From the NCBI GenBank assembly GCA_001004665.1, contig LCRO01000007.1, positions 1 to 33,870 on the forward strand: a stretch of 33,870 bases of DNA. Reading direction: 5' to 3'. The translations under genes were made by a program, and so were the position numbers. The notes under the pieces were generated by a model that was not told the DNA's origin, made no database searches, and saw only the letters and a list, made by a program, of their open reading frames with translations. Positions 2,038 through 31,226 of the stretch are shown here, piece after piece. The DNA is from Candidatus Adlerbacteria bacterium GW2011_GWA1_54_10 (GTDB taxonomy: Bacteria > Patescibacteriota > Minisyncoccia > Phycocordibacterales > SBAW01). The first letter of the stretch is position 1; each line of letters begins with the position of its first letter.

Positions 2038-2307
2038 GTGAATCTAGTCAGGTTTACACGGATTCCCGCGCAGTTAAGGTGGGCCTTCGACTACTACCCG
2101 TTTGAAATCCGGCATGGTCGGGTCTCCAGTGGTAATGGGCCGCTGTTGGTCGGGGTGTGGCGGCGTAAGGGGTCTGGTCAACCATATGAGCCTGTTTCGG
2201 CTCAGTTTGTGGCCAACCATATTGCATCAAAAGTGCGTGGGAGCTACGTGCTTCCGCAAACCGACGAGGATCTAAACACTGCCCTGCGGCAACTCCAAGT
2301 GGCTTAA
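2038..2307 (+). CDS. Hypothetical protein (89 aa)
   Basis: Fills the smc-rnr gap and has its own TATAAT and strong SD. Stop overlaps the rnr stop. No recognised motif. Confidence 0.6.
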   Translation: MNLVRFTRIPAQLRWAFDYYPFEIRHGRVSSGNGPLLVGVWRRKGSGQPYEPVSAQFVANHIASKVRGSYVLPQTDEDLNTALRQLQVA

Positions 2308-4277
2308 GTCAGCTCGAAATCGAGCTGTCGCATAGCCAGGTCGGCCGCAATCAGGCGCACTCGGACGGAATCTCCGAGTGCGTATTTCTTTTTCTTGCGC
2401 GCTCCGACAAGCGCATATTCTTTTTGTGAATAGTTGTAATAATCGTCTCGGAGAGTGCGTACATGCACAAGACCCTCCGCGGCGCTTTCTTTTTCTTCCA
2501 CGTACAGGCCCCACTCCGTCACGCCGGATATCACGCCGTCGAAAGTTTGTCCTATCTTATCCTGCATGTACTCCACCTGCTTATAGCGGACCGACTCGCG
2601 TTCGGCGTCTACGGCCCTTGCCTCCGCCTCGGATGCCTCGATGCACATTTTTTCGAGGTTGGCATATTCTTTGCGGGTTATAGGCTTACCATTCAGGTGT
2701 GATTCCAATATGCGGTGTGCCAGCATGTCTGGGTAGCGGCGTATCGGCGAGGTAAAGTGGGTGTAATACTCGAATGCGAGCCCGAAGTGCCCGATATTTT
2801 TGGTTGAGTATATCGCCTTTGCCATACTGCGGAGAGTTGCCGTGCGTATAAGGTGCTCCTCCGGCTTGCCTTCTATCTGTTTGAGTAATTTTTGAATGTC
2901 TTTAGTGGAGAATTTTTTCTGCTTATTCTTCCCGAATTCATATCCCACGGCGCGGACGAATGTCGCCAGCTCCTCGATGCGGTCGGACTTCGGTTCGTCA
3001 TGTATGCGGTAAAGAAAGATAAGATTCTTTTCCGGCACGTTTTCCGCGAGCTTGGAAATATAGCTTGCCACCTCGCGGTTAGCGAGCAGCATGAACTCTT
3101 CTATCAGTAAATTAGTCCCCATTCTTTCTTTTCGGCGCACGGACAGTGGCTTGCCGTTTTTATCCAGTTCGAAGTGCACCTCACTGTCGCCGAAGTCTAT
3201 TGCCCCTTCTTTTTCTCTATTCTTGCGCAAGATGCGGGCCAGATTTTGTAATATTAAGAGCTCATTTGCGAAGGTCAGACCTTCGCAAGCTTGCGAAGGT
3301 CTGACCTTCGCATCCGCAGTATCGAGCACCATCTGCGCCTCCTCGTATGTAAACCGCCTGTCGGAGCGGATTACGGATTTTTGGAATTTCCGTCCCAGCA
3401 CTTCGGCGTTTTTATTCATACGAAAGACTGCCGAAAAAGCGAGCCGATCCTCCCCTGGCTTTAGCGACGCCCCCCCCGCCGAGATCTCGTGCGGGAGCAT
3501 TGGAATGGTCGCATCGACGAGGTACACACTGGTGCCGCGGCGCCTCGCCTCGTCGTCTATGGCGGTTCCGGGTCGGCAGAAGAAAGTAGCATCGGCAATA
3601 TGCACGCCGATCTCAAACTCGCCGTTCGGCATCGCTACGCAGGAGAGAGCGTCGTCGAAGTCCTTGGCGTCCGCGGGGTCTATGGTAAAGGTCGGCGTGC
3701 CACGAAAGTCAGTTCGGCGCGCCGCCTCGGACTTAAGGATTTGGTCGTGATCGTGCCCCAGAGCCTGTGCCTCGGCCAAAACATCGGTTGGAAAATCCGT
3801 CCGAAAGCCGTGCTCCAGCACTATGGCGTTCATCTCTACCCTGTGCTCGCCCGCCTTGCCTAAGTGTTCTATTACTGTGCCTTTTGCGGCAATGCCGTCA
3901 AAAAAGTCCAGATGTATCAGAACTTTCTCTCCCTCGGCGAAATCGCGCCCTTTTATCTGTATGGGGCGGTAGAATTTAATATCGTCCGGCTGGACAAAGA
4001 CGGCACCTCGAGAACCCTGTTTTAAGGCGTCGCCTTGAATAATCGTTCCAACAAAATCTTCTTTCGCGCGCGTTATGATTTTTTTGACTTTTCCTTTGGG
4101 ACGGGGAAAAAGCGCCGCAAGTTCCACTTCCACCGTATCGCCGTTAAGAGCGCCCCCCAGGTCATCAGTCCGGATTTCGATGTCTTCTTTATCTTTCTCC
4201 CACGCTACATAACCCACCGCCTTTCGCGTGAGCTCTATGATGCCGGTTATGTGTTTTTTGCCCTTGATATTGCGCAT
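2304..4277 (-). CDS. rnr: Ribonuclease R (RNB + S1 domains)
   Basis: FTIDPADAKDFDDALS catalytic motif, LIEEFMLLAN, HFTSPIRRYPD and a C-terminal S1 domain. Confidence 0.95.
   Translation of the reverse strand: MRNIKGKKHITGIIELTRKAVGYVAWEKDKEDIEIRTDDLGGALNGDTVEVELAALFPRPKGKVKKIITRAKEDFVGTIIQGDALKQGSRGAVFVQPDDIKFYRPIQIKGRDFAEGEKVLIHLDFFDGIAAKGTVIEHLGKAGEHRVEMNAIVLEHGFRTDFPTDVLAEAQALGHDHDQILKSEAARRTDFRGTPTFTIDPADAKDFDDALSCVAMPNGEFEIGVHIADATFFCRPGTAIDDEARRRGTSVYLVDATIPMLPHEISAGGASLKPGEDRLAFSAVFRMNKNAEVLGRKFQKSVIRSDRRFTYEEAQMVLDTADAKVRPSQACEGLTFANELLILQNLARILRKNREKEGAIDFGDSEVHFELDKNGKPLSVRRKERMGTNLLIEEFMLLANREVASYISKLAENVPEKNLIFLYRIHDEPKSDRIEELATFVRAVGYEFGKNKQKKFSTKDIQKLLKQIEGKPEEHLIRTATLRSMAKAIYSTKNIGHFGLAFEYYTHFTSPIRRYPDMLAHRILESHLNGKPITRKEYANLEKMCIEASEAEARAVDAERESVRYKQVEYMQDKIGQTFDGVISGVTEWGLYVEEKESAAEGLVHVRTLRDDYYNYSQKEYALVGARKKKKYALGDSVRVRLIAADLAMRQLDFELT
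3267..3312. repeat. Perfect 46-bp palindrome (inverted REP-like doublet) in frame inside rnr
   Basis: TGCGAAGGTCAGACCTTCGCAAGCTTGCGAAGGTCTGACCTTCGCA equals its own reverse complement. Each half is itself a hairpin. Confidence 0.95.
3996..4038 (-). repeat. REP-like element in frame inside rnr; homologous to 15376-15420 in rpoD
   Basis: Minus strand TCAAGGCGACGCCTTAAAACA matches rpoD TCAAGGCGACACCTTAAAACA at 20 of 21 nt. Confidence 0.8.
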
Positions 4278-4707: not shown

Positions 4708-5064
4708 ATGGCAGAACAAGATCAGGATTTTTTGGAGTTTGTCGTTAAAGGGCTTGTTGATCATCCGGAAAGCATCAAAATCAGCCGCGTTGTGGATGAA
4801 ATGGGCGTGCTTTTGACCCTCGATCTCAATGCCGAGGACATGGGCAAGGTTATAGGCCGCAGTGGCAACACGGCGAAGGCCATCCGCACGCTTTTGCGCG
4901 TAGTGGGAATGAAGAACAATGCGCGCGTCAACCTTAAGATAAACGAGCCCGAGGGCGGCACGCGCGGTTCTGCGGATACCGGATGGGACGGCACGCATGA
5001 GGCGCCCGCCTCTCCCGCGATGAAGTCCGTCGACGAGGCGATGGAGGACCTCTCCAAGTTTTAA
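4708..5064 (+). CDS. khpA: KH-domain RNA-binding protein (KhpA/YlqC family)
   Basis: EDMGKVIGRSGNTAKAIRTLL GxxG KH motif. Conserved position after rpsP. Confidence 0.9.
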   Translation: MAEQDQDFLEFVVKGLVDHPESIKISRVVDEMGVLLTLDLNAEDMGKVIGRSGNTAKAIRTLLRVVGMKNNARVNLKINEPEGGTRGSADTGWDGTHEAPASPAMKSVDEAMEDLSKF

Positions 5065-5179
5065 GCGAAGCAAAAACCAAGTTTGAGAGAATGTTGGTAG
5101 GCGCGACGGCGCCGGACATAGAAAAATTTTCAGCAGAAAATTTTTTGCATTCGGTGCAAACTTGGTTTTTTGCGAAGCG
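5064..5179 (+). repeat. ~115-bp structured repeat, copy 1
   Basis: Terminal inverted arms AAAAACCAAGTTTG/CAAACTTGGTTTTT and an inner hairpin. Aligns to the reverse complement of 20968-21081. Confidence 0.9.
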
Positions 5180-6713: not shown

Positions 6714-13571
<6,858 letters not shown>

Positions 13572-20967: not shown

Positions 20968-21081
20968 GGCTCCGAAAAAATCAAGTTTGCGCCGAACGCG
21001 GAAAATTTTCAGCAGAAAATTTTCCTACTTCCGGTGCCGTCGCGCCCAGAGACTTCTCTCAAACTTGATTTTCGCTTCGCT
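20968..21081 (-). repeat. ~115-bp structured repeat, copy 2
   Basis: Reverse complement aligns with 5064-5179 (about 80% by eye), with compensatory stem changes. Confidence 0.9.
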
Positions 21082-30488: not shown

Positions 30489-30515
30489 TTGTCTAGAGGT
30501 GACACCTCTAGACAA
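30489..30515. repeat. Palindrome at the 3' end of the RAYT gene
   Basis: TTGTCTAGAGGTG-A-CACCTCTAGACAA, with an extra half copy TCTAGAGGT at 30481. It contains the transposase stop codon. Confidence 0.95.
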
Positions 30516-31185
30516 GCGTTGGGGTGCGCGTACGGTAGAATTCCTGAGCATTACAAAGCATTTCAGTAAAATCGGGATTTGGATAAAATTCTCGCAACAT
30601 ATTACCGGTTATCGCACCCTCCGGCCGATTTTGGCCAAAAAAATCAATAAGGCTGGAATATTGATATTGAAACAATTTATTTTCAATTTTTTTTAATTCG
30701 CCGCTTCCGGTTTTCCATTGAGGTTCGAAAAGCTCTATCGGATTAAACAGCACATATGGCACGACTTGCTTGAAGTAAATATTGTCGGAAATATGCTTTG
30801 AGCGAAAAGGCTTTACAAACAAATTACCCACCCTTGCCCTTTTTACATTGAAGTACATCGTATAACCAGTGCTGAGCTTACGCATGAATTTTGTTATTCC
30901 TCCTTCTGTCAAGGCTTTTAAAATCAAATGAAAATGAGATGGCATCAGGCAGTAGGCTCCTATTGCAACAATAAGCTCTTTTCTGGGTAAGGATAATATT
31001 TCTTCGTGAGTTATGTCGCGATCAAAAGAACTGCGCTCGACAGGGGCAACATTATTGGCCAGATAAAGCATCTGTGTAAAACGCAAATAATCACTTGTTG
31101 TCTCAAAGACTTTTCTTTTTTCGACTCCGCGGCTATAGCAATGGAACCATTCATTAGGAGCAAGGGGAATACGCCGGTAGGTCAC
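30508..31185 (-). mobile_element. Y1 HUH transposase, REP-associated (RAYT)-like
   Basis: FHCYSRGVEKR, YCLMPSHFHL (HUH), YFN...GNLF..PF, YVLFNP (catalytic Tyr) and YSS. Visibly more AT-rich than its neighbours. Confidence 0.9.
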
Positions 31186-31200
31186 AAGGTAAGTATACCC

Positions 31201-31222
31201 TGTCTAGAGGTGACACCTCTAG
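31201..31222. repeat. Palindrome at the 5' end of the RAYT gene
   Basis: TGTCTAGAGGTGACACCTCTAG is identical to 30490-30511. Confidence 0.95.
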
Positions 31223-31226
31223 GTGC

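Follow-up and report, generated by a model that had tools for sequence, protein, structure and literature searches.

A perfect 46-bp palindrome in the RNase R gene of a Patescibacteria-type genome is a REP-like inverted doublet of a dispersed hairpin

The window analysed here, a stretch of 33,870 nucleotides from Candidatus Adlerbacteria bacterium GW2011_GWA1_54_10, carries on its reverse strand an open frame for ribonuclease R (Table 1) that scores 658.9 bits against TIGR02063 (cut-off 597.85), displays the CSD-RNB-S1 layout and retains the acidic RNB motif D200/D206/D208/D209, residues that we presume to be catalytic. Its named homologues come from the Paceibacterota, Parcubacteria, Nomurabacteria and Adlerbacteria, which puts the host among the Patescibacteria (CPR), and its structural model (88 sequences) matches solved RNase R with a TM score of 0.82. 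The initial annotation had described a perfect 46-bp palindrome just after the FTYEEAQ motif of this gene, composed of two hairpin units placed head to head around AAGCTT, and this description was borne out. The segment equals its own reverse complement, its arms (3267-3289 and 3290-3312) pair at 23/23 positions with no gap, and it begins 7 codons after the motif. Two 21-nt hairpins, each with a 10-bp stem and 1 unpaired base, face one another across an AGCT spacer, AAGCTT being the palindrome centre. In the gene the palindrome runs from the last base of codon 322 to the end of codon 337 and is read as AKVRPSQACEGLTFA; that both strands encode this peptide, in the open frames 2304..4277 and 3091..3750, follows from the symmetry and is a by-product of it. 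The antisense frame (3091..3750, +), which nothing suggests to be a gene, was set aside as a presumed shadow of the RNase R frame.

Table 1. Features of the window discussed in the text (positions count from its first nucleotide).
Feature	Position	Strand	Remarks
RNase R (host gene; open frame of 657 aa)	2304..4277	-	Pfam RNB, CSD2, S1; TIGR02063
Perfect 46-bp palindrome: two 21-nt REP-like hairpins, inverted, on either side of a self-complementary 4-nt spacer	3267..3312
Second hairpin unit in gene direction	3267..3287	-	codons 331-337, CEGLTFA
Spacer AGCT, symmetry centre	3288..3291
First hairpin unit in gene direction	3292..3312	-	last base of codon 322 and codons 323-329, D-AKVRPSQ
Second hairpin, decayed, same general type, 2 stem mismatches	4020..4040	-	in frame, peptide IQGDALK
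Sister-family 21-nt hairpin at the stop of the window Y1 gene	30492..30512
Non-cognate Y1/HUH transposase-like gene, belonging to a sister repeat family	30508..31185	-
Sister-family 21-nt hairpin upstream of the window Y1 gene	31203..31223

The genome (G000; 596 kb in 18 contigs) yielded a list of 189 hairpins and palindromes, in which the 46-bp palindrome is the longest, and base composition predicts only about 1e-8 palindromes of such length per genome. As RNA the 46-mer is predicted to fold into a single hairpin at -41 kcal/mol, and a search for an exact duplication flanking it found none. A CT dinucleotide lies immediately 5' of each palindrome arm, and published TnpA-REP cleavage sites are described as carrying CT (PMC8266576); because the other 7 copies of the unit do not have CT in that orientation, we draw nothing from this. 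The decayed hairpin of Table 1 falls in the N-terminal part of RNase R, in a stretch that exceeds its counterpart in the closest-scoring of the relatives shown by approximately 7-10 residues. We also observed a second RNase R (G000:C17:287-2200; 51% identical, with a short loop) and a second TrmD-like gene (G000:C12:592-1281), each on a small G+C-richer contig, which are possibly contamination of the bin.

Could the palindrome be an assembly that folded back on itself? The region was found in 20 public runs, which come from groundwater and soil metagenomes and include no listed RNA data set, and 8 of these were examined, all as contigs. In 6/8 runs one contig enters from the left flank and reaches 3296, a second begins at 3283 and continues through the right flank, and the palindrome shows no differences; of the remaining two, one covers the right side only, from 3275, and one neither side (runs X10 and X13 do not cover both flanks). 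Spanning of the site was thus obtained from both flanks but not by any single contig in the 8 runs, a break inside a 46-nt palindrome being what a graph of 31-letter words would be expected to give, and neither a joint skipping the palindrome nor an empty allele was found in them. The 90% protein cluster of this RNase R contains 5 members (of 9) that cover the whole site, four of which share the same 15 residues while the fifth differs at two, both falling within the second hairpin unit; some cluster members may derive from the window's own sample. Since the palindrome flanks are unique and keep the RNase R frame, as those of a fold-back would not, we regard a fold-back artefact as extremely improbable: the two flanks never share a contig in these contig-only data, but independent contigs cross the centre from either side in most runs, the cluster members carry the same or nearly the same residues, and equivalent doublets occur in other species. 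A second 46-nt perfect doublet of the RNase R unit, with the opposite arrangement, a GGCC spacer and a similar depth, was observed in runs X1, X2, X4, X5, X6 and X13; it is absent from the G000 assembly, including its contig ends and gaps, and the runs also contain related 38-44-nt doublets of other organisms.

Alignment of orthologues disclosed a length difference at the site. For the genus comparison the 29 best-scoring relatives of 36 searched were fetched, 28 of which were resolved at the site, and the segment from FTYEEAQ to GAIDF measures 43 residues in 20/28 and 44-73 in 8/28, as against 54 in the window gene. The 120 database homologues (window gene included) have 43 residues in 78 cases, 52-55 in 18 and other lengths in 24, a distribution to be read with the knowledge that the query contained the insert and the search therefore favours insert-bearing (long) matches. 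The initial annotation had proposed a recent insertion, and of this proposal the insertion stands, while its recency is only suggested, by the identity of both units to copies that flank a transposase gene (see below); there is no close empty site with which to date the insert, because the closest homologue from another species shares 76% identity. In the structural model a helix (311-324) is followed by coil (325-336) and a further helix from 337, with pLDDT <50 at 326-332, and the palindrome-encoded segment is accordingly predicted to be a disordered loop in an intact-looking RNase R. In the solved RNase R chains 8CDU_C and 5XGU this segment is approximately 49-50 residues long, whereas most relatives have 43, and the region therefore tolerates length change.

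The palindrome does not appear to have been simply added to the gene. Its 46 nt occupy the place of approximately 13 nt, a net gain of 33 nt or 11 residues, and since 11 residues were gained as against the 15 that the palindrome encodes, host codons must have been replaced. We tabulated 76 short loops and found Gly at position 15 in 76/76, mostly Pro at position 16, and Tyr or Phe at position 17 in 63/76. The loop of the window gene has no Gly left outside the palindrome, the host Gly-Pro codons having been lost, and the second unit encodes Gly333 and Phe336 ahead of the conserved Glu-Leu, matching the Gly and the Tyr/Phe of the short loops. Judged from these alignments, the host codons around a conserved Gly-x-aromatic motif were replaced, with the Gly and Phe now supplied by the repeat, although the exact junctions of the insert cannot be fixed without a close empty-site relative.

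The initial annotation missed that this unit recurs across the genome and is linked to a Y1 transposase gene. At ≤2 mismatches the genome contains the 21-mer 9 times, in 8 cases exactly in either orientation, and allowing 3-4 mismatches adds none; two copies form the RNase R doublet and the other 7/9 lie outside doublets. Three copies bracket the gene G000:C3:83612-84295 (- strand), at its stop and upstream of it (C3:83604, 84300 and 84355), and the first unit of the RNase R palindrome is identical to all three. This gene, which is the cognate Y1 gene of the RNase R unit and lies outside the window, encodes a protein of 227 aa that passes Pfam Y1_Tnp narrowly (23.5 versus 23 bits) and reaches 32.8 bits versus the 80-bit cut-off of NF047646, the NCBIfam model for REP-associated tyrosine transposases. 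Residues H87, H89 and Y147, the last of which we take to be catalytic, are invariant in 120 homologues. The best PDB match of its structural model (mean pLDDT 88) is 4ER8, the E. coli REP-associated tyrosine transposase in complex with a REP hairpin (E 4.5e-6, TM 0.44/0.58), followed by the IS608 and ISDra2 transposases; a PDB sequence search with the same protein gave no match, and a profile search gave ISDra2 only, with an E value of 0.37.

The association of hairpin and Y1 gene is not confined to this pair. The genome has three divergent single-copy Y1 genes, the two besides that on C3 each having its own 21-nt family, and clear own-family hairpin pairs were found at 8 of 10 Y1 loci in three genomes (one further pair is decayed and one locus has none). 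In genome G020 no exact hairpin of the family found in its RNase R gene was present at its 6 Y1 loci, and the cognate Y1 gene was not found among them. The exact 21-nt unit of the window occurs in 0/300 other genomes of the order and in 0 viral contigs; the only other genome record that contains it, L056, has the unit and 3 variants of it in and around a related Y1 gene. A search of metagenome contigs for the doublet pattern returned 1 locus, a doublet of the exact unit with a 1-nt spacer, in frame in another gene, presumably a DNA ligase; the AGCT doublet was not found elsewhere in these contigs, from which records near the source genome may be left out. Rfam yielded only four microRNA-precursor models, far below their thresholds. 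We also observed hairpin copies that sit in frame within the Y1 genes they belong to, ahead of the HUH motif (L056:1725 and G000:C10:5462), and a copy of the hairpin family of the window Y1 gene in frame in the open frame C8:23953-25272. Separately, 4/9 unit copies (G000:C2:43808, C3:42339, C3:83586 and C3:84380) lie 5-8 nt from a 9-mer that, to our eye, looks like a DnaA box, where 0.09 such neighbours would be expected by chance (32 hairpins, 18 such 9-mers); the RNase R copies have no such 9-mer.

We compared these features with the REP/REPIN-RAYT systems as described for TnpA-REP (4ER8), for the Pseudomonas REPINs (PMC3116915) and for the short perfect REPs of group 3 (PMC8266576). Shared with them are a short perfect hairpin in dispersed copies; copies that bracket a low-copy Y1/HUH gene in inverted arrangement, as also in L056; several pairings of gene and repeat in one genome, with a separate family for each; inverted doublets folding as a single long hairpin; and a protein with the HUH motif, the Tyr and the TnpA-REP fold. 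On the other hand, none of the 9 unit copies has a GTAG, GTGG or CGTC foot within 6 nt on either side, families here comprise roughly 10 mostly single copies whereas REPs are mostly extragenic, high-copy and mainly in doublets, spacers here are of 0-4 nt, about half of the well-preserved copies (17/32) lie inside genes, the 227-aa protein falls below the NF047646 cut-off, and the host is of Patescibacteria type. Because hairpin copies bracket a Y1/HUH gene whose product has a 4ER8-like model, we class the RNase R palindrome as a REP-like (REPIN-like) inverted doublet that lacks the GTAG foot, and it is called REP-like because three features of the REP/REPIN-RAYT systems, namely the foot, a match to the curated model, and an extragenic high-copy distribution, do not apply to it. 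The IS200/IS605 elements (IS608, ISDra2) share the Y1 HUH fold and subterminal hairpins; here, however, it is the hairpin that is dispersed and not the gene, the three Y1 genes being divergent single copies, and as a further difference from IS200/IS605 elements or MITEs there are no near-identical whole-element copies and no target duplication at the 46-mer. The Rickettsia palindromic elements, among which RPE-1 is given as about 150 bp with one conserved peptide in the summaries contained in PMC10969869 and PMC3733652, likewise are palindromic repeats translated in frame in a bacterium with a reduced genome, leaving genes undisrupted, but the window unit is 21 nt, is read in three frames and has a candidate transposase in the genome.

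RNase R is one of several genes occupied in this genome. Hairpins of the core type with ≤1 stem mismatch number 32, versus 1, 3 and 1 in three simulated genomes, and 17/32 fall inside open frames of at least 150 aa, at least one of them probably by chance; across genes the 21-nt unit is read in all three frames. Four further genes, which we take to be PepA, UvrB, LeuRS and PheT, were compared with 29 relatives each. PepA is 8 residues longer for a 46-nt pair of units in the same direction with an AAAT spacer; UvrB gains 15 residues at one loop and, relative to 29/29 relatives, 3 residues for a 7-codon unit at another; LeuRS gains 1 and 0 residues, and PheT, with a spacer-less 42-bp doublet, about 0 to 1. 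Relatives carry other repeat families in the same loops of these four proteins, some without any change in length. Poorly conserved columns hold 24/25 of the in-gene hairpins in five gene sets, a result that is partly circular because inserts themselves lower conservation.

Our data further indicate that the RNase R loop has likely been filled by hairpin pairs in several other lineages. The G020 RNase R contains a doublet of its own 11-copy family in the same place, with the same 25-nt spacing and in the same frame; its intact unit differs from the window unit by three compensated base pairs, and its spacer is AGAA. DNA at the site was examined for these two doublet-bearing genomes only, and the remaining homologues were analysed as back-translated proteins: among the 18 with 52-55 aa, 13 can encode one hairpin and 9 two (the window gene included, and 4/9 near-identical), whereas among the 78 short loops 5 can encode one and 0 two, and among the 24 loops of other length the count is 0. 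The hairpin-encodable loops agree in position and frame, yet represent several stem sequences or repeat families. In a quick tree built without the loop from 115 of 120 proteins (5 were dropped for anchor mismatch), the 13 hairpin-encodable homologues, a group defined once the tree had first been inspected, need 8 changes, and a single clade is rejected with a p-AU of 7e-12; a 31-row RNase R tree that includes the loop leaves G000 and G020 unresolved. Small groups with good support contain filled, differently filled and empty loops side by side, close relatives having different inserts or none (P0014/P0034/P0094; P0036/P0120/P0109), and P0036 and P0010 have the same insert flanks but differ at residues corresponding, in either unit, to a paired position. 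As far as can be read from these protein and DNA comparisons, the pattern would mean repeated gain, replacement, or exchange of a gene segment. Longer, GC-rich or imperfect hairpin inserts (63-73 aa segment) were also observed in the same loop in L022, L023, L026 and L028 (genomes G022, G023, G031 and G007), and the G023 loop-insert peptide recurs in the G023 PheT.

Taking these results together, we are confident, if short of certain, that the palindrome is an inverted pair of the genome's own 21-nt REP-like hairpin, likely placed by a Y1/HUH enzyme and likely tolerated because it sits in frame within a predicted flexible loop, the encoded peptide being most likely a neutral passenger. In the mechanism that we infer, the hairpin is mobilised by the Y1 transposase-like protein, which would nick single-stranded DNA at or near hairpins, and strand transfer or fold-back synthesis primed from a 3'-OH would make an inverted doublet. 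PMC8266576 has TnpA-REP enzymes cleaving and rejoining single-stranded REP DNA, with a 3'-OH that may prime synthesis or transfer, and PMC3116915 has REP doublets excising asymmetrically with a few terminal bases left behind. The C3 enzyme might have placed either a single unit or a pair in RNase R, fold-back copying could have generated both the pair and the symmetric spacer, and approximately 13 nt of target would have been replaced by the repeat. Purifying selection would then keep only those placements in which the fixed core of the repeat reads Gly-x-x-Phe before the next helix, which would explain why other families occupy the same register in other lineages.

Other routes to the same locus deserve consideration. 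In one, which is quite possible though we lean against it, a single unit arrived and template switching during replication copied the inverted arm and perfected the spacer, the doublet itself never having moved. The initial annotation had suggested arm-to-arm conversion, a process that the two 21-mers do not require but that could account for the symmetry of the 4-nt spacer. The symmetry of AGCT, and likewise of the GGCC spacer of the second 46-nt doublet in 6/8 runs, fits such copying, as do the spacer-less doublet of pheT and the 7/9 family copies outside doublets; non-symmetric spacers nevertheless exist (AGAA in the G020 rnr, AAAT in the same-direction pepA pair), the same two-unit geometry recurs in several lineages, and template switching would still require a mobile unit. 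A selected function for the insert, either as an mRNA hairpin adjusting the translation or decay of rnr or as a peptide that refills the canonical short helix, we consider very unlikely. The stable RNA fold, the longer segment of 8CDU_C and 5XGU and the repeated filling of the loop could be cited for it, but 78/120 homologues do without an insert, the inserts are unrelated in sequence within segments of 44-83 aa, the model gives coil and not helix, the second unit carries two substitutions in one cluster member, and the Rfam matches all fall below threshold.

A further possibility, unlikely in our judgement though by no means negligible, is a sub-mechanism of the preferred route in which recurrence stems from targeting and not from selection alone: the empty site, with its Lys/Glu-Gly-Pro-Phe codons, would resemble a centre-less repeat, pair with it and be replaced, and an occupied site would later be converted to whichever family is active. 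Consistent with this, the empty rnr site ranks 2/660 alignment columns for likeness to the repeat core, net gains in UvrB, LeuRS, PheT and PepA are often smaller than the repeat, P0036 and P0010 differ within otherwise shared inserts at a paired position in both units, and the two sets of close relatives named above hold different inserts or none. However, the likeness score was set after the site was known and used the best of 8 columns, the occupied sites in the four other genes rank 28/607, 83/824, 192/683 and 20/465, and insertion with later deletion, selection for Gly and Phe, or gene-segment exchange predict the same patterns. As a general rule, target-likeness found no support in 4/5 genes. 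Its boldest form, that Patescibacteria hairpins overwrite coding sequence because Gly-Pro-Phe codons mimic them, attract them and are replaced, with families displacing one another, is in our view improbable; were it true, a foot-less REP transposase would be a natural short-patch sequence writer in the core genes of streamlined genomes.

As one palindrome in one gene, the RNase R insert is an example of a phenomenon already published. Intragenic GTAG/CGTC REPs and REP dimers have been described in frame in housekeeping genes, e.g. uvr, ligase and tRNA synthetases, and those in loops were thought neutral (Di Nocera et al. 2013, PMC3733652, where in one reported case, Xanthomonas recB, different REPs occupy roughly the same position), and Quentin et al. 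(2018, PMC6006769) describe REPs lying in frame within genes of tnpA-REP subclass 2.4. Those elements share with ours the in-frame single units and dimers within genes, but belong to another repeat class and phylum, whereas here one loop has been filled in many lineages, in one register and with host codons replaced. RNase R is absent as a REP target from 4 supplementary files of PMC3733652, in which only ribonuclease BN appears, and we found no published description of such repeats in CPR bacteria, or of REPs in RNase R, in the open-access literature. What is new is therefore the recurrent, codon-replacing occupation of one RNase R loop. How REP repeats spread is still described as open in PMC8266576, and coding hot spots such as this loop offer what intergenic REP copies rarely give, a site that can be aligned in its empty, filled and refilled states so that rules for the junctions might be read from it; the present case suggests that target bases are replaced rather than that the repeat is cleanly inserted. 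The finding also explains odd loop peptides in CPR proteins, which could be mistaken for conserved features or assembly errors.

Two further observations concern the remainder of the window. The segments 5064-5171 and 20975-21081 are inverted copies approximately 16 kb apart (72 nt at 85% and 28 nt at 93%), intergenic-looking and each with an internal hairpin, and positions 6714-13571 hold a single 2285-aa open frame that we take to be an apparent fusion of RNA polymerase beta and beta-prime.
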